Below are positions 33,618-55,611 of a stretch of 64,000 nt of DNA, in pieces. How positions within the stretch are numbered: the first letter of the stretch is position 1; each line of letters opens with the position of its first letter. The DNA comes from Escherichia coli. Lineage in GTDB: Bacteria; Pseudomonadota; Gammaproteobacteria; Enterobacterales; Enterobacteriaceae. Location: assembly GCF_044324875.1 (NCBI RefSeq), contig NZ_CP172185.1. One strand, written 5' to 3'. Below the pieces are notes generated by a model. It was given only the letters and a program-made list of their open reading frames with translations, had not been told where the DNA came from and did not search any database. The translations under genes and the position numbers were made by a program.

Positions 33618-35608
33618 ATGTTGCAACATTATTCAGCGTCATGGAAAAAAGGACTGACTGCACTCTGCTTACTGGCTGTTGCCGGGCTTAGCGGCTGCGA
33701 TCAAAAAGAGAATGCGGCGGCAAAAGTGGAATACGACGAACTTTCGAACAGCCAACCGCTGCGTGTCGATGCTAATAACCATACGGTAACCATGCTGGTG
33801 CAAATTAATGGTCGTTTCCTCACCGACGACACTCGTCACGGTATTGTGAACCGCCCCGGGTTTCCTGGAGAGTGTTTTATCTGTGAACTCAGGCTGCCAG
33901 ATCATCGTTTCCGATGGAAGCATAATAAGCTTTTTCTGCTTCTGCCGGTGGGATATGGCCCAGCCTTTCCAGCAATCGTCGATTGTTATACCAGTCCACC
34001 CACGTGAGTGTGGCCAGCTCCACTTCTGTCCGGTTTTTCCAGCTCTTACGGTGTATTACCTCCGCTTTGTAAAGGCCATTGATGCTCTCCGCCATCGCGT
34101 TGTCATACGAGTCACCAGTACTTCCTGTTGATGCCAGTAATCCGGCTTCCTTAAGCCGCTGTGTGTAGGCCAGCGATACATACTGAGAACCTTTATCACT
34201 GTGATGGACTGTGCCGGACGGTCGACGGGCCCATAACGCCTGCTCCAGAGCATCCAGCACGAATGTCGTTTCCATAGACGATGAGACCCGCCACCCCACG
34301 ATGTATCCGGCAAACACATCAATGATGAACGCCACATAGACGACCCCCTGCCATGTGCTGACGTAAGTAAAATCAGCCACCCACAACTGGTCAGGACGTT
34401 CTGCCACAAACTGACGGTTTACGCGGTCGCCTGCGGCAACGGCTTTCCGGCTGACGGTAGTGCGGACCTTTTTACCCCGGAGAACACCGGCAAGTCCCAT
34501 AACCGCCATGAGGCGCGCCACTGTACATCTGGCTACCCTGATTCCTTCCCGTAACAACTGACGCCAGACTTTACGCACACCGTATACCTGATGATTCCCA
34601 TCGTATACGCGCAGTATCTCTTTCTTCAGCCAGTCATCGCGCTGCGCACGGGCACTGCGTTTATCCGGATGATGTCGCTGTTGCTGACAGTGGTAATACG
34701 TTGACGGGGCAATATGTAGTTCACTGCATACCGGTCCGACCCCGTACAGCTTACGCAGCTTATCCAGCAGTGGCATCACTTTTTCCAGAGGCGGTCGAAC
34801 TCCGCCTTCGCAAAATAAGCGGAAGCCTGGCGAAGGATATCGTTACTGCGGCGCAGTTCACGATTTTCACGTTCCAGCTCTTTCAGACGCTGACGTTCAG
34901 CGGTGGTGAGCCCGCCATCACCGCCTCCGGTATCCCGCTCATGCTGGCGTACCCAGACACGCAGAGTCTCCGGTGTACAGCCAATCTTTGGGGCAATGGA
35001 ACAAATTGCCGCCCACTGTGAGTCATATTCGCCCTGACTTTCCAGAACCATACGAATCGCCCTCTGACGGACTTCGGGGGAAAAACGAGTATTTTTAGTC
35101 ATTCTGTTTACCTCTTTCTCAGGGAGTTTAGTCTCCAGGATTCCCGGGGCGGTTCATTGTGTTTAAAGATGGCTCCAACGGACATAAATCGCTGTTTATG
35201 GGTTATGCGACCCCGAAAGCATTTTATGAAGCCCTGAAAGAGGCAGGTGGTACACCGGGCGAAAACATGACGATGGATAATAAAGAAACGACTCATGTCA
35301 CAGGCAGCAAACTGGATATTTCGGTCAACTGGCAAGGGGCGGCAAAAGCGTATTCCTTCGATGAAGTGATTGTTGACAGTAATGGCAAGAAACTGGACAT
35401 GCGCTTTGGCGGTAATTTAACGGCAGCAGAAGAGAAGAAAACGGGCTGCCTGGTGTGTCTGGATAGCTGCCCGGTCGGCATCGTCAGCAATGCAACATAC
35501 ACTTATGGTGCGGTTGAAAAACGAGGTGAAGTTAAATTCAAAGGCAATGCCTCGGTTCTCCCGGCGGATAACACGCTGGCAACGGTTACCTTTAAAATCA
35601 CCGAATAA
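33618..35608 (+). pseudogene. ydjY: ydjY interrupted by IS629
   Basis: 5' part 33618..33846 (MLQHYSASWKKGLTALCLLAVAGLSGC…TRHGI) and 3' part 35157..35608 (VFKDGSNGHK…TFKITE) are in frame once the 1310-bp IS and one copy of the TTG duplication are removed. Confidence 0.8.
33847..35156 (-). mobile_element. IS629-like insertion sequence (IS3 family), copy 2, 1310 bp, inverted relative to copy 1
   Basis: Same termini; orfA 34776..35102 identical to copy 1; orfB 33889..34779 differs by a few residues (e.g. HPDKR vs HPYKR); 3-bp TSD TTG on both flanks. Confidence 0.85.
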
Positions 35609-47552: not shown

Positions 47553-47822
47553 AAAAACACAGGCTAACCGCGCCTGCGTTTTTAATGACGGATGAAACAG
47601 AATCAGGTGCCGATTATGCCGCCGTCGGCTTTTACGATAACGACAGTTGAGGAGCGCGGACGACCAGCCTTATCGCCGTCAGGCCAGCTTGATACTGCCG
47701 TCGGATGCTGCGGATCGCTAAGCTGCGTATTCCGCTCTATTCGATCACGGATTGGCATCGAAGTCCGATCAGCGATTCGCATCCATTCGATCAACCGGGA
47801 ACTTAACTTTTTCTACCGCTTT

Positions 47823-48578
47823 TTAACGCGTTTTTTCGCTGCTTTCCACTACCGGGGGATTTTTCCTCAGTGACTCTCCCTGAAGGACCACTCGGTGTGA
47901 GTTATGTACCAGTCTGTCCAGGATGGCATCTGCTGTTGTTGGGTTCTCCATCAGACCATGCCATTTATCTACCGGGAACTGGCTTACCACTATCGTGCTG
48001 CTTTGTCCGTAACGATCCTCTATGAGCTCCAGAAGGTCATTACACTGGGCGTTACTTAACTGTTCCAGCCCCAGATCGTCCAGGATTAGAACCTGTATTT
48101 TTTGCAACTGTTTCAGATATTTCAGCCAGCTGCCATCAACACGTCCCTGAGCCAGTTGTTCCAGTAATCGCCCGGTTCTACAGTACCGGACGCTGTGTTT
48201 CTGTCGACATGCCTGTTCGCCCAGCGCATTGGCTATCCAGCTCTTGCCACATCCTGTCGGACCGGTTATCAGCAGGTTTTTCCTGTGGGTTATGTAGTGG
48301 CCGTTCAGCAGTTCTCTCATCTGTTCAGCCCGCAGACCTCTTGAGGCCGGATAGCGCAGCCCTTCCGGTGTTGCCTGGTATTTCAGGCCGGCATTTTTTC
48401 TCAACCGTGCCACACGGCTGTTTTCCCTGCTCAGAAGCTCGTCATCAACCAGCAGCGTCAGCCTTTCCTCGAACGACAGTTCGTCGTAGGTCTGAGGCGT
48501 TTCCCGCTGCCGTATCAGGCTCCCGGCCATCGCCGGGAGTTTCAGTTGGGTCAGTTTGTTTAACAGGTTATCACTCAT
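47823..48578 (-). CDS. istB: IS21-family helper ATPase IstB
   Basis: MSDNLLNKLTQLKLPAMAGSL… with Walker A GPTGCGKS and Walker B VLILDDLG. Confidence 0.8.
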   Translation of the reverse strand: MSDNLLNKLTQLKLPAMAGSLIRQRETPQTYDELSFEERLTLLVDDELLSRENSRVARLRKNAGLKYQATPEGLRYPASRGLRAEQMRELLNGHYITHRKNLLITGPTGCGKSWIANALGEQACRQKHSVRYCRTGRLLEQLAQGRVDGSWLKYLKQLQKIQVLILDDLGLEQLSNAQCNDLLELIEDRYGQSSTIVVSQFPVDKWHGLMENPTTADAILDRLVHNSHRVVLQGESLRKNPPVVESSEKTR

Positions 48579-48594
48579 ACTGTTGTTCCTTCTG

Positions 48595-50160
48595 TCAGTG
48601 GTAGTAGCCCGGACCACGCAGGTTTTCATGCTCTGAAGCATATGCCGGATGTTGTTCGCCCTGGCGGGATAATGGAAGCTCCAGGTTCTCCCGATGGTGA
48701 CGCAGCAGATTGTCGATAAAGCGTCTGTCAGGGGCGTTATAGTGCAGGGCAACGTAACAGGCCTTTTCCAGCCGTTCCGGGCCGTATTTTTTCTGAAGTG
48801 CCAGCAGCCCCAGAACTGCACGATAAGCCAGTTCCGGATGGGGTTTTGCCTTCAGCATGGATTCAACCACCCGGCCTGTGGACGGGCCCGTACGTTTTCC
48901 CTGCTCGATCAGGCGTTCCGGTGTCCATGTCCCGTGCTGCCGGTGGCGCTCTGGCATGTGAAGCGGATTGGTTGTGTGTTTATATTCATGTGTGCTGCGC
49001 GGATGTTGCGCCACACACTGCCCCTTGTGCCAGAGCTGTACCACCGACTGCCCCGCCTTCAGTGACAGACGCTGACCGACCAGTTCGTGTGGAACGGAGT
49101 ACCAGTGACGGGCATATTCAACGTGGTAGTCAGGGCCAACCTTCACAGCTTTGTATTCCGTGTATTCATAAGGTGCCAGAGGCAGCGGAGAGAGTGCTGG
49201 CGCATCCAGTATGCGGAAGCGTTCTGCACGGGTTTGATTGCCGTACCCCTTCATTGGCCGGTTATTCATGTCTGTCAGTAACTCCCTAAGGCGCGCATTC
49301 AGCGCCCTGAGCGTGTGGAAGGTTTCATTACGGATGCGGGCAAGAAGCCATCGTTCAACGATGAGGACGCCGTTTTCTGCTTTTGGTTTATCTTTAGGTT
49401 TGCGTGGTCGGGCCGGGATGATAACCGTGCCATAGTGCTCAGCCAGTGCCTGATAACTGTCGTTGATGACAGGCTCATATCGATCGGCCTTTTTCACTGC
49501 GCTTCTGAGGTTATCGGGGATGAGCAGCTTCGGTACGCCGCCCAGGAAGGTCAGGCAACGGCTGTGGGCATTTAACCATGACATCATGTCCTGACCTTCG
49601 CACGCTTCAACGTAGGTATAGTTGGACGCCCCCATTACGGCCACGAAGATTGCCACGCGGCGTATCTCACCGGTGTCCGGATTAATAACAGGAACCGTAG
49701 GACCACAGAAGTCGATAAAAAGCTTTTCGCCGGCACGATGCTCCTGGCGCATGGAGAGACGTCGCGTTTTTTTCCACTCCCGGTAGCAACGGCAGAAGTG
49801 CGAGTATCCCATCGCTTTGTTACCCGCCTGTGCCTTGTATTCCATCCACAACAGTTGCCGCGTCACACCTGGTTTTCTCATTTCCGTATCGAAGTACAAC
49901 ATGTCAGGCATTACAAGCTCTGATGCAAAGGTGTCTTTGGGCGGAAAAATGAGTTTCTCCAGCGTGTCATGGGATATATCAGCAGGTAATGGCCATGACA
50001 GAGAAGAGGCTTTGAAGCGGGCAAGAACCTCAAAAACGGTTGAGGCGCTGATGTGTAACGTCAGTCCGATACAACGGTTAGTCAGCTTCTTGTCGAACTT
50101 GAGCTGAAGGATCTTAAAACAGGTTTCCATAGTGCTCCTGGATTTTCTCTTTCTGGACAT
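48595..50160 (-). CDS. istA: IS21-family transposase IstA
   Basis: About 510-520 aa with HTH N-terminus and DDE integrase core; start codon uncertain (ORF extends to 50241). Confidence 0.75.
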   Translation of the reverse strand: MSRKRKSRSTMETCFKILQLKFDKKLTNRCIGLTLHISASTVFEVLARFKASSLSWPLPADISHDTLEKLIFPPKDTFASELVMPDMLYFDTEMRKPGVTRQLLWMEYKAQAGNKAMGYSHFCRCYREWKKTRRLSMRQEHRAGEKLFIDFCGPTVPVINPDTGEIRRVAIFVAVMGASNYTYVEACEGQDMMSWLNAHSRCLTFLGGVPKLLIPDNLRSAVKKADRYEPVINDSYQALAEHYGTVIIPARPRKPKDKPKAENGVLIVERWLLARIRNETFHTLRALNARLRELLTDMNNRPMKGYGNQTRAERFRILDAPALSPLPLAPYEYTEYKAVKVGPDYHVEYARHWYSVPHELVGQRLSLKAGQSVVQLWHKGQCVAQHPRSTHEYKHTTNPLHMPERHRQHGTWTPERLIEQGKRTGPSTGRVVESMLKAKPHPELAYRAVLGLLALQKKYGPERLEKACYVALHYNAPDRRFIDNLLRHHRENLELPLSRQGEQHPAYASEHENLRGPGYYH

Positions 50161-50241
50161 TGACGTCTCCACTGGTTTAAACACGGCAATGGAGACTGTG
50201 GTGAAAAGAGTTAATTCCCGGAGTGACTGGCAGGATGCCAA

Positions 50242-52227
50242 TCAATGATCGGAAGCATGCCAAATCGTGATCGATTGTGATGCCAAACTGTGATCGGAGA
50301 TGGATGCCAAATCATGATCGATTCGAATGCCAAACTGCGATCGATTCAGATGCCATTTTGCACTAAGCCCTTCGCTTGGCTCGCCAGGGTGCTGGATGTT
50401 AATAAACAGCGTCCGGTTATCCGGAGTGAACGCGATGCCGGTGATTTCGCAGCCGCGCGGGCCGGTCAGGAAGCGGCGGAACTCATTGGTACCGGGAATC
50501 GTCGCCACCATCTGGTTGTTGCCCATGCCTTTGTAATCTTTAATATTTATGGTTGATGACGACACGTCGGTCTGGATCCATAGCACGCCGCGGTGATCGA
50601 AGCTCAGGCCATCGGCGCTGCCGAATTCCGCACCCTTCATGCTGCCTTTGGTTTCCGGTTTGTCTGTATCGGTGCGACCGCCCATCACAAGAATATCCCA
50701 GGCAAACTGCAGCGCGGTCGGGTCACCGTTATGCTCCAGCCAGTGAATGATGTGGCCGTAAACGTTTTTGGCGCGCGGGTTGGCCGCATCCACTGGCGCT
50801 TTTCCTTCCTTACCGCGATCGCTGTTGTTGGTGAGCGTGCAGTAAACGCTGCCGGCGTGATATGGATCGACCGCAATCCACTCCGGGCGGTCCATTTTAG
50901 TGGCCCCCACGGCGTCTGCCGCCAGACGGGTTTTAATCAACAGGTCGCCCTGGTTTTCAAACCCTTTACTGGCGTCGAGCCCATTTTGTCCGAACACCAG
51001 CGGTAGCCACTCGCCTTTGCCGTCGTCGTTAAATTTCGCCACGTACAGAGTGCCTTTTTCCAGCAGGTGCATGTTGGCTTTGCGATCCTGCGGGTTGAAT
51101 TTTCCTTCCGAGACAAATTTATATATGTATTCGAATTTCTGGTCATCGCCCATATAGACCACAACGCGGTTATCCGGGGCAATTGTCACCGCTGCGCCTT
51201 CGTGTTTGATGCGACCAAGCGCGGTGTGCTTGCGCGGCACTGAATGCGGATCGTATGGATCGATTTCCACCACCCAGCCGAAGCGGTTCGGCTCGTTCGG
51301 CGTGGCGTCGACGCTGAACCTTTTATCCACTTCGTTCCAGCGGTAAGAGTCGTCGCTCCCGCTGATACCGTAACGTTTTTCCAGCGGGTTCATCTCTGCT
51401 TTTTTTACGAAAATATCGGACCAGTTCTCTTCACACGTCAGATAGGTGCCCCACGGCGTAAATCCGTTGGCACAGTTCTGCATGGTGCCGAGAATGATTT
51501 CGCCTTTCGGATCGTCAACTGTTTGCATCAGTGGGTTATGCAGCGCCGGACCGGTGATTTTCATCGGCGTGTTAACGGTGATGCGGCGTGCGAACGATGA
51601 CGGGCGCACCACTTCCCAGCCCAGGGGCACTTTTTTTACTTCAATGACCGACACGCCCATCGCGTTCTGGCCTTTAAGAGCTTTATCGGCGCTCCAGTTG
51701 GCATCGCCATCTTTAAACAGTAGACCGTTATCGATGTATTCATGGTTTATGGCAAGCAGGCCGTGATCGGAGCTGTTCCCGCCCTGCGGCAGGCTAAACC
51801 ACGCCATGCCGTCGTGGTGCATCCCGGCCTGCGCCGCCTGTTCTTCCGTGGTGTTGCTACCGTCGGTTTTAAAAACCGGCAGATTTCCGGCAATCCCGGT
51901 GGCGTCGCCCCATTTGTAGAAGGGCTTCGCGATGTATCCTTCCGGCACGATAACGGTATCTTCCGTGGAAACCGGCAGGCTGGTGAAACCGAGCGTCGTC
52001 GCTTTGCCGAGGTTACCGCTTGCTTTGGAGACCACTTTCGCCAGCGCGTTTTCCTGTTTCAGCAGAAATGGGAACGCTGCCGCGGCACCGGCGACCGTGC
52101 CTGCCTGTAACAGACGGCGGCGTGACAAATAGACTTCCGCCACCTGCGAAAACGCGCGGTTATCGCTCGGGTTACTGATTTCTTCACTATGCTCACGTTT
52201 GAATAAAGTTTTTAACGGTCTGCCCAT
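50242..52227 (-). CDS. Tat-signal secreted PhoX-family (DUF839) phosphatase-like protein; C-terminus replaced by IS21-derived codons
   Basis: 661-aa ORF; twin-arginine motif SRRRLLQAGTVAGAAAA; beta-propeller-like repeats; last about 40 codons read through the IS21 terminal repeats. Confidence 0.45.
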   Translation of the reverse strand: MGRPLKTLFKREHSEEISNPSDNRAFSQVAEVYLSRRRLLQAGTVAGAAAAFPFLLKQENALAKVVSKASGNLGKATTLGFTSLPVSTEDTVIVPEGYIAKPFYKWGDATGIAGNLPVFKTDGSNTTEEQAAQAGMHHDGMAWFSLPQGGNSSDHGLLAINHEYIDNGLLFKDGDANWSADKALKGQNAMGVSVIEVKKVPLGWEVVRPSSFARRITVNTPMKITGPALHNPLMQTVDDPKGEIILGTMQNCANGFTPWGTYLTCEENWSDIFVKKAEMNPLEKRYGISGSDDSYRWNEVDKRFSVDATPNEPNRFGWVVEIDPYDPHSVPRKHTALGRIKHEGAAVTIAPDNRVVVYMGDDQKFEYIYKFVSEGKFNPQDRKANMHLLEKGTLYVAKFNDDGKGEWLPLVFGQNGLDASKGFENQGDLLIKTRLAADAVGATKMDRPEWIAVDPYHAGSVYCTLTNNSDRGKEGKAPVDAANPRAKNVYGHIIHWLEHNGDPTALQFAWDILVMGGRTDTDKPETKGSMKGAEFGSADGLSFDHRGVLWIQTDVSSSTINIKDYKGMGNNQMVATIPGTNEFRRFLTGPRGCEITGIAFTPDNRTLFINIQHPGEPSEGLSAKWHLNRSQFGIRIDHDLASISDHSLASQSITIWHASDH

Positions 52228-53988: not shown

Positions 53989-54354
53989 ATGAAACTTTTC
54001 TTCCAGATTGGATACAATCAGGCCGTATCCCGTATTACAGGCTTATCACGTGTGACAGTCAGTCTCTGGGTGTGTTCAGGAACATTCCCTGAAATGTCAA
54101 CCCGGCCTCCAGAGCGAGGACTTCTGGCCCCATGGAGGGAGTGGTTAAAAGAGCAACGAGAAAGTGGTAACTTCGGCGCGTGGCTGCAAGGATGGCAGCT
54201 GATGCTGCGGCTATATGTGAGGCAATCAGCAGTCGCTGGAATAATGGGGGTTGTCGAAAGTCATGTAAATCGACTAAAAATGCTGAAAGGCCAGATGTAT
54301 GGTCGAGCCGGATTTGAACTACTCAGGCAGAGGGTCATGAGTCCACTGGCATGA
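53989..54354 (+). CDS. AlpA-family (phage/island) transcriptional regulator-like protein
   Basis: Segment VSRITGLSRVTVSLWVCSGTFPE resembles the AlpA HTH; ORF is longer than typical AlpA and its start is uncertain. Confidence 0.4.
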   Translation: MKLFFQIGYNQAVSRITGLSRVTVSLWVCSGTFPEMSTRPPERGLLAPWREWLKEQRESGNFGAWLQGWQLMLRLYVRQSAVAGIMGVVESHVNRLKMLKGQMYGRAGFELLRQRVMSPLA

Positions 54355-54562
54355 AAATCTCCATCCAGGTTGCGTAAGAGCCACTTTTCATCCGTCGTCG
54401 ATATCTGGGATAGCCATAGTGAAATAAAAAGCTGTCTGAATTAAATTATTTTGCACATATATTTTAATCCTGCACTGAATTAAGAATGGGTAATCAGTGA
54501 CCGCTTGGACGGTCACTTTTAAGAGAAGGCATTAACAGAGAATGGTAAACAGGCTCAATATA

Positions 54563-55014
54563 TTATGTTGTTGGCACTACAGATGAATGATGGGATGATA
54601 TTTTCCAATCCTTTCCATCCCACTCATAAGCGAAACTATAGCGTGCTGAAACTTGTTTTTTATCTTCAAAAGTAAACGTGTAATTCCCTGTATCAAGAGC
54701 CATATTGCATCCAATGCGAATAGTTCTGAAGTTTATTTCTCCAACAGGTTTTTTTTTCAAAAAATGCTCAAAATAGTCAACTCTTTCTGCATCTGTAATC
54801 CTAATTTTTTTTGATACTGTGGGCAGTAAGATCGCATCACTTAAATAGTTATCAGCAACCTTCTTGGCATCACCTGTTTTTAATGATTCATTCCAGCGAT
54901 CGAATAACCTTTCAATGTCTTTACTATCTACCCGAATACACTTAACATTATCTACGTCACTTGCCCACGACGCTCCAGAAAACAGACACAGAATTAAAAT
55001 ATTTATTTTTTCAT
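54563..55014 (-). pseudogene. Secreted SnoaL-like/NTF2-fold (DUF4440-type) protein gene with ATG out of frame at an A6 tract
   Basis: Open frame SYEKINILILCLFSGASWASDVDNVK…ARYSFAYEWDGKDWKISSHHSSVVPTT has no in-frame ATG; the ATG at 55012-55014 is in another frame directly 5' of AAAAAA; A8 and A9 runs lie within the gene. Confidence 0.5.
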
Positions 55015-55245
55015 AACTCCTCCTGATCAGCCTGAAACTTTTTTAAAGTTTAATCATATTAATACAGTGCAACTATTTGATAGTAAAAACGATGTTCTCT
55101 ATTTTGTTAATAGATACTTCCTATTGTGTATATATTATGAGATTATTAAGAATAATACTCTCTGGGTCGTAGAGACAGGGTATAAGTCACAGGCTGGTGT
55201 GGTTCGGATGTTCTTGCCCCCTCAATATCAGACTGCTATTGTATC

Positions 55246-55611
55246 TTAAGTTAACGTTATCCGCTGACGTCGATATTCCCGTGGTGAGAGATAACCTAAC
55301 GCACTATGCGGATGGTTTTCATTGTAATGCTCGAACGCCTCTGCAAGGTTATGCAATGCCGTTATTACATTCGGTTTCGGTATGAACGCAATGTAGTCTT
55401 CCTTCATCGTTTTCACTAACCTTTCTGCCATTCTATTGCTCTGAGGGCTACTGACTGCCGTCGTGCAGGGCTCCAGATTCAACTCTCTGGCGAATTGCCG
55501 TGTTTCATGAGCCGTATAAGCCGAACCGTTATCCGTCCGCCACTGGATTGCTCGTTCCGGTCCTTTATCGCCAAAGCGTTTTTCTATCGCTCCTAACATC
55601 ACATCCTGCAC
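55246..55611 (-). pseudogene. IS3-family transposase OrfB C-terminal remnant
   Basis: Integrase-core C-terminus …[20 protein letters not shown]. Confidence 0.6.

Follow-up and report, generated by a model that had tools for sequence, protein, structure and literature searches.

The 64-kb stretch of an Escherichia coli chromosome analysed here (the window) contains, at 54563-55014 on the minus strand, a frameshifted coding sequence, a candidate pseudogene allele. It corresponds to the intact gene of a 150-aa, probably periplasmic NTF2/SnoaL-like protein minus one A. The gene is located in an island that is inserted beside ynjA and is accompanied by a tyrosine integrase. The island contains iha, phoX, pseudogenised ICE transfer genes (TIGR03756/03757, TraU/DUF1525) and many transposase fragments, and the SnoaL-like gene is surrounded almost entirely by pseudogenes and IS remnants. 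Directly upstream of the gene lies an IS integrase-core remnant (55246-55611, minus strand), annotated in relatives as a frameshifted, incomplete ‘integrase core domain-containing protein’; directly downstream lies a transposase remnant (53989-54354, plus strand), also annotated there as frameshifted and incomplete. Since IS debris is found on both sides, the SnoaL-like gene is best described as an isolated cargo ORF. The first 25 kb of the window match E. coli at 97.9%, which might have suggested Shigella or a divergent host. This idea was rejected, as the core genes of a 5-kb segment agree at 99.9% identity with several ordinary E. coli strains.

Other parts of the window also bear traces of rearrangement. 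Five substitutions and a 1-bp indel are clustered at 55373-55417, within the integrase-core remnant, and are shared only with the island copies L029 and L034; the cluster resembles a short gene-conversion tract. It keeps a 121-aa ORF (55246-55611) open in the window; in relatives this part is annotated as frameshifted. The gene ydjY is split by an IS3-family element (33849-35155; orfA of 108 aa, orfB of 296 aa), which is missing from the collinear chromosomes of SCU-115 and DG342-2. An IS21-family element (istA/istB, 47724-50362) has inserted at the 3′ end of phoX, whose product now finishes with IS-derived sequence in place of its last ~37 residues and has 661 aa, as against 659 aa in relatives; like the one in ydjY, this insertion is specific to the strain of the window. 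A metagenome contig, L035, aligns with its positions 3188-6902 to window positions 54113-57828 and is about 3% diverged. It retains intact TraC, DUF1525 and TraU, which points to an ICE origin of the island, and its SnoaL-like gene is identical in DNA sequence save for a change from A9 to A8.

The start region of the SnoaL-like gene is well formed. A Shine-Dalgarno sequence, AGGAGG (55019-55024, minus strand), can be read from the sequence and is the same in all aligned copies; it ends 4 nt 5′ of an ATG (55012-55014, minus strand), with AGTT as the spacer. This ATG now heads an ORF of only three codons (M-K-K-stop). It is followed by an A6 homopolymer (55006-55011, minus strand), whose counterpart in the intact allele is A7 and which marks the site of the 1-bp deletion, and then by a premature TAA (55003-55005, minus strand) that the deletion created in the ATG frame. 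The remaining 147 codons of the SnoaL-like protein lie in the -1 frame relative to the ATG and end at the normal TAA stop of the gene (54563-54565, minus strand), which can likewise be read from the sequence. Between a TAA at 55045-55043 and the stop at 54565-54563, the -1 frame stays open over 160 codons; it reads ...YEKINILILCLFSGASWASDVDN...YEWDGKDWKISSHHSSVVPTT or, in an alternative excerpt, ...YEKINILILCLFSGASWASDVDN...KISSHHSSVVPTT. The codons of the Sec-type signal peptide, residues 4-18 (INILILCLFSGASWA; 54962-55006, minus strand), are out of frame with the ATG. Compared with the intact gene of strain ECCNB12-2, the window allele lacks one A, and this is the sole difference over 541 aligned bases. 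An intact reference allele, a premature stop with no canonical rescue start and an ancestral in-frame state, which are among the features by which a frameshift pseudogene is recognised, are all found for this locus.

The original prediction had described a SnoaL-like frame with its ATG one base out at an A6 tract, and the arrangement ATG-AAAAAA-TAA on the minus strand is indeed present. Its proposal that one extra A would restore the frame proved exact: the insertion gives a protein identical to WP_029400372.1 (150 aa), which is annotated as intact in many E. coli genomes, and the frame is therefore no chance ORF. The two internal runs that it had listed are both there, A8 at 54805-54812 and A9 at 54749-54757. 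The statement that the frame has no in-frame ATG needs correction, since an ATG occurs at codon 104 (54703-54701); what stands is that the first ~85-95 codons are devoid of a canonical start, the first ATG, GTG or TTG of the long frame being a TTG at codon 86 (54760). A scan of the minus strand for promoters and terminators near the gene called none. An 8-bp perfect inverted repeat, AGTGACCG-N6-CGGTCACT, is located at 54496-54517 on the minus strand, about 45 nt 3′ of the stop codon; no T-run follows the repeat and it was not called an intrinsic terminator.

WP_029400372.1, which is found in many E. coli chromosomes, is annotated as an ‘SgcJ/EcaC family oxidoreductase’; the term ‘oxidoreductase’ is a mere family label. 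The translation restored with A7 matches TIGR02246 with 42.8 bits (cut-off 33.95) over profile positions 2-127 of 128. Pfam matches of the restored protein include CaMKII_AD (E = 6e-13), SnoaL_3 (2e-7) and DUF4440, and residues 30-149 match PDB 3H51, a Xanthomonas structural-genomics protein, with E = 1e-30. By its HMM score, the restored protein is a member of the TIGR02246 family, which has an NTF2-like CaMKII-association-domain fold, although the window copy is frameshifted. For the alpha+beta cone of NTF2-like proteins, a putative trait of this one, the observation is the sequence match to the solved structure 3H51. Homologs with 60-70% identity are encoded in Enterobacter, Providencia, Yersinia, Serratia, Buttiauxella, Pantoea and others, and some occur in Pseudomonas and Acinetobacter. 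They are about 148-155 aa in length, and each combines a signal peptide with two invariant cysteines; after an initial M-K/R/N-K, a hydrophobic segment leads up to an A-x-A-like site. In the E. coli protein, signal-peptide cleavage is predicted after SWA, and this architecture is conserved in the orthologs. The N-terminal signal peptide and the two invariant cysteines distinguish the enterobacterial subfamily from the SgcJ/EcaC family at large. Judging from the signal peptide, the A-x-A-like site and the cysteines of the homologs, the intact protein is probably an exported, disulfide-bonded, NTF2-like protein, most likely of the periplasm. The earlier assignment to secreted SnoaL/NTF2-like proteins is accordingly upheld by TIGR02246, Pfam, PDB 3H51 and the signal peptides of the orthologs. 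The gene neighbourhoods of the Buttiauxella and Pantoea orthologs contain no conserved partner that would hint at a function.

The gene is present in 51 complete E. coli chromosomes; in about 46 of them, the first tract is longer than that of the window by exactly one base (A7), and A7 is also present in all three metagenome contigs. At the aligned position, orthologs from 16 other taxa start with M-K/R/N-K; together with the signal-peptide architecture, these starts identify the ATG at 55014 as the ancestral start and A7 as the ancestral tract. In-frame M-K/R/N-K starts are found across Enterobacterales, and these starts and the A7 majority mark A6 as a derived allele that, judging from the reading frames, would be one of loss of function. 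A non-ATG start shared by the orthologs in the same frame, which had been held to speak against an out-of-frame ATG, was seen in none of them: all are in frame from a methionine. The nearest island haplotype, L029/L034, differs from the window by about five SNPs per 10 kb and has the A7 tract. The ‘recent inactivation’ offered earlier as one of two readings is consistent with both the A7 majority and this A7 in the closest haplotype.

The A6 allele is rare and recurrent. It was found in the window, in strain LH50-c and in a draft contig (L011), on three haplotype backgrounds; in LH50-c, a second frameshift in the gene accompanies it. Inheritance of a single A6 by the window and LH50-c, which are alike in two SNP states, was considered and rejected, as the nearest haplotype to the window (L029/L034) has A7. 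In the first tract, A8 occurs as well, in L010 on one haplotype and in L009 and L012 on another (at least two backgrounds). The heterogeneity of A6, A7 and A8 across haplotypes indicates that the first tract is prone to slippage. OFF alleles at this tract make up about 1-2% of copies (one of about 45 distinct complete genomes and none of three metagenome contigs). At most 11 contigs encode products of ±1 changes in the first tract, as compared with at least 999 for the intact protein; these counts represent unevenly ascertained contigs and not independent events. In other strains, the gene was lost through IS insertions and truncation. The comparison of tract lengths among orthologs that the original prediction had proposed thus did reveal A6, A7 and A8 on different haplotypes, but a switch function of the tract is not supported by the evidence as a whole. 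Species-representative genomes were also scanned for the tract pattern and gave no matches. Four short draft contigs of different haplotypes start inside the first A-tract, L013, L014 and L015 at window position 55008 and L016 at 55010; IS insertion, assembler trimming or within-sample length heterogeneity could each account for these starts.

Slippage is not confined to the first tract. The A8 run (54805-54812, minus strand; codons S-K-K-I) and the A9 run (54749-54757, minus strand; codons L-K-K-K-P) are both unchanged in the window. The latter is the sole A/T run of nine or more in the 64 kb and, in the population, the most often frameshifted site of the gene. When predicted frameshift products were looked up by exact match, the A9 run gave 93 contigs (90 for -1, 3 for +1), the A8 run 23 (9 for -1, 14 for +1), the first tract the small number given above for -1 and +1 combined, a T6 run two (both -1), an A6 run at nt 355 one (+1) and an A5 run one (+1). 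Products were found for nearly every run of the gene, and the contig counts climb with run length. According to published data, the E. coli indel rate is an exponential function of run length (PMC8510543). The A9-to-A8 product (P0003), which accounts for the 90 contigs, is distributed over at least three or four haplotypes, and the A10 product is the one found on three contigs. In the clade marked by 54228G, L030 (A8) and L017 (A9) both carry 54502T and differ at the A9 tract (54757); repeated changes of the tract, or its reversion, would thus keep pace with the appearance of single SNPs, and either reversion or very frequent recurrence is possible in this clade. The window and L029 differ by two indels in 10 kb, both inside the 453-bp SnoaL-like gene. 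A CC-to-C deletion disrupts the gene elsewhere. Other runs of the island vary too, including non-coding and pseudogene runs and an A8 run near the 5′ end of iha. This last run (60659-60666, minus strand) covers codons ~35-37 (GYEKKLT), about 100 nt into the gene for the adhesin/siderophore receptor; in L027, it is A7 and the gene yields products of 37 aa and 649 aa.

The abundance of long runs can be explained by the coding sequence itself. The gene has a GC content of 35% and a lysine codon usage of 12:4 for AAA:AAG. The three runs of seven or more exceed the expectation from base composition (P = 0.0015), but a codon-permutation test gave P = 0.19, and the probability of A7 after the ATG is 0.55. 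The A7, A8 and A9 runs are therefore attributable to KK/KKK motifs combined with a bias towards AAA codons. Orthologs do not keep these runs as tracts: those of Buttiauxella begin with ATG AAA AAG and have no long runs, and those of Pantoea have neither A8 nor A9.

A close anatomical parallel is known from Listeria monocytogenes, where inlA is in frame with A7 and encodes an 8-aa peptide with A6; A6 was found in 18 of 79 lineage II isolates, and reversion from A6 to A7 occurs at ~1e-7 (PMC2831843). The A7/A6 alleles of inlA were read by Orsi, Bowen & Wiedmann (2010) as reversible regulation (PMC2831843). As in inlA, the A7 of the SnoaL-like gene consists of lysine AAA codons very near the start of a coding sequence whose product is exported, A6 truncates the product almost at once and the deletion arose more than once. 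The differences are that A6 is common in inlA and amounts to about 1-2% here, that A8 is found here too and every other run of the gene is hit as well, and that the host is E. coli. The classical contingency loci of Neisseria, Haemophilus, Campylobacter, Bordetella and Mycoplasma resemble the locus in their slipped-strand mispairing and in the frameshift ON/OFF of a surface or exported protein, but their tracts are longer or conserved, and ON and OFF variants coexist at high frequency even within cultures. Such loci employ poly-G/C or long poly-A/T tracts and switch at rates of 1e-2 to 1e-5; phase variation by simple sequences is generally regarded as little used in E. coli. Homopolymer-driven pseudogenisation of AT-rich acquired E. 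coli genes (PMC8510543, PMC8928963) is alike in all material respects: a 1-bp indel in an A/T run, a frequency rising with run length and a degraded, IS-rich island. It is to this class that the A6 allele of the SnoaL-like gene most probably belongs.

Several other explanations of the allele have to be weighed. The genome might in truth have A7, the A6 of the window being a homopolymer miscall or an assembly error. Several sequencing platforms err most often in the length of homopolymers, and none of 5,426 complete genomes yielded an exact copy of the A6-only gene. However, when the whole window was compared with SCU-115 and DG342-2 and its A/T runs of six or more were measured against 19 island copies, all other such runs in the shared 13.6 kb (50.4-64 kb) had the consensus length. 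Against its relatives, the window shows just two indels in 26 kb, the second of which is common to L029/L034. The consensus length of the other runs and the occurrence of A6 in the independent assemblies of LH50-c and L011 make a sequencing error improbable; A6 is probably not an artefact. Even less likely is that the A6 allele yields some full-length protein. Such leakage could proceed by a -1 slip of tRNA-Lys on A-AAA-AAA before the UAA, by transcriptional insertion of an A or by re-initiation at ATA/ATT. The sequence ATG AAA AAA TAA would let the P-site lysine tRNA re-pair one base back, the next codon then being ATA (Ile4), and a strong Shine-Dalgarno sequence precedes the slip codon by about 10 nt; from the reading frames, such a slip would restore the exact wild-type N-terminus, MKKINIL.... 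A slippery sequence is thus present at the junction, as in programmed -1 frameshifting, but the out-of-frame arrangement is conserved in no homolog, all orthologs and about 90% or more of the E. coli copies being in frame. As a site of transcriptional slippage an A6 run is short, ATA initiates translation very poorly and the LH50-c copy has decayed further downstream of its A6. Databases do hold 147-aa ‘MNILIL...’ proteins called from ATA on A6 and A8 alleles, among them P0004 (loci L009-L016), whose public entries start at the ATA codon of Ile4. PGAP sometimes takes in-frame ATA or ATT codons as a start, and entries of the P0004 type are annotation work-arounds for the A6/A8 frameshifts, not evidence of a non-canonical start. 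An exact look-up in the protein collection of a 65-aa TTG-start product, a proxy for the 5′ frameshift alleles, found it absent.

The original prediction had offered slipped-strand phase variation as an alternative to recent inactivation. In the form weighed here, the A7, A8 and A9 tracts would be maintained for the reversible ON/OFF switching of an exported protein. Length does vary among close strains, with A6, A7 and A8 on different island haplotypes; A9 and A8 alleles are interleaved in one SNP-defined clade, which allows reversion; the tract directly follows the start codon of a secreted-protein gene in a virulence-associated island, with an anatomy like that of the inlA A7/A6 tract; and the four draft contigs that break inside the tract could mean length heterogeneity within samples. 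Yet the OFF state is rare by every count given above, and neither common coexistence of ON and OFF across genomes and contigs, nor a conserved tract or one beyond codon expectation, nor variation concentrated at the supposed switch was seen. Variants instead scale with run length in all runs of the gene and also in non-coding and pseudogene runs of the island; codon usage accounts for the tracts, which orthologs do not conserve; LH50-c is doubly frameshifted; and IS insertion and truncation destroy the gene as well. In mismatch-repair-proficient E. coli, moreover, an A7 tract is expected to slip at a rate orders of magnitude below that of classical phase-variable tracts. A maintained contingency locus is on this evidence improbable. 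The same low probability attaches to its wider consequence, a gene on the iha island that turns ON and OFF at host-relevant speed, perhaps with the A8 run of iha behaving likewise, or is partly rescued by -1 slippage; phase variation and trace expression are, even when taken together, an unlikely account. Adaptive gene loss, in which inactivation was positively selected in some E. coli lineages and homopolymers offered the quickest route, is hardly more probable than the contingency locus alone. The many independent disruptions of this 453-bp gene would suit it (A6 on three backgrounds, A8 on at least two, A9 to A8 on at least three, and also the CC-to-C deletion, IS insertions and truncation), as would the fact that such near-identical haplotypes as those of the window and L029 carry two different frameshifts. 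Against this, about 90% or more of the copies keep the intact allele, the indel spectrum tracks run length as expected of neutral mutation and the surrounding island is in general decay.

The best explanation, which we hold to be considerably more likely than all of these, is a loss-of-function pseudogene allele that arose by a one-base slippage deletion, as part of ordinary decay and not as an evolved switch. The change from A7 to A6 would have occurred by replication slippage in the run encoding Lys2, Lys3 and the first base of Ile4. Ribosomes starting at the well-placed ATG would then stop after three codons, and the 147 codons downstream would be left without a usable start, so that expression is presumably lost. 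The intact gene would be cargo of the ICE-derived, IS-riddled iha/phoX island beside ynjA; its KK/KKK motifs, all in AAA codons, would make A7, A8 and A9 passive mutational hot spots sitting under weak or no selection. The A6 of the window may accordingly be one among many independent slippage events on an AT-rich gene. That other strains have slips in every A-run, roughly in proportion to run length, argues for ordinary mutational decay and against a dedicated switch. A counterpoint is the intact allele, still ~90% or more of copies: its prevalence may stem from purifying selection or from the young age of the island. The former would fit a functional gene, a situation that a contingency locus presupposes.

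The biological novelty of the locus is small, as the gene and its family were annotated before and RefSeq flags equivalent alleles as ‘frameshifted’. For annotation, the window copy is better recorded as a pseudogene than as a 65-aa or an ATA-initiated protein, and the 147-aa ‘MNILIL...’ database entries are artefacts of ATA start calls on A6/A8 alleles. For the biology of E. coli, the gene is a natural illustration of how indel frequency tracks homopolymer length (A9 > A8 > A7 > A6/T6 > A5) in AT-rich acquired DNA, and it is useful as a baseline against which claims of phase variation made from tract polymorphism alone can be set.
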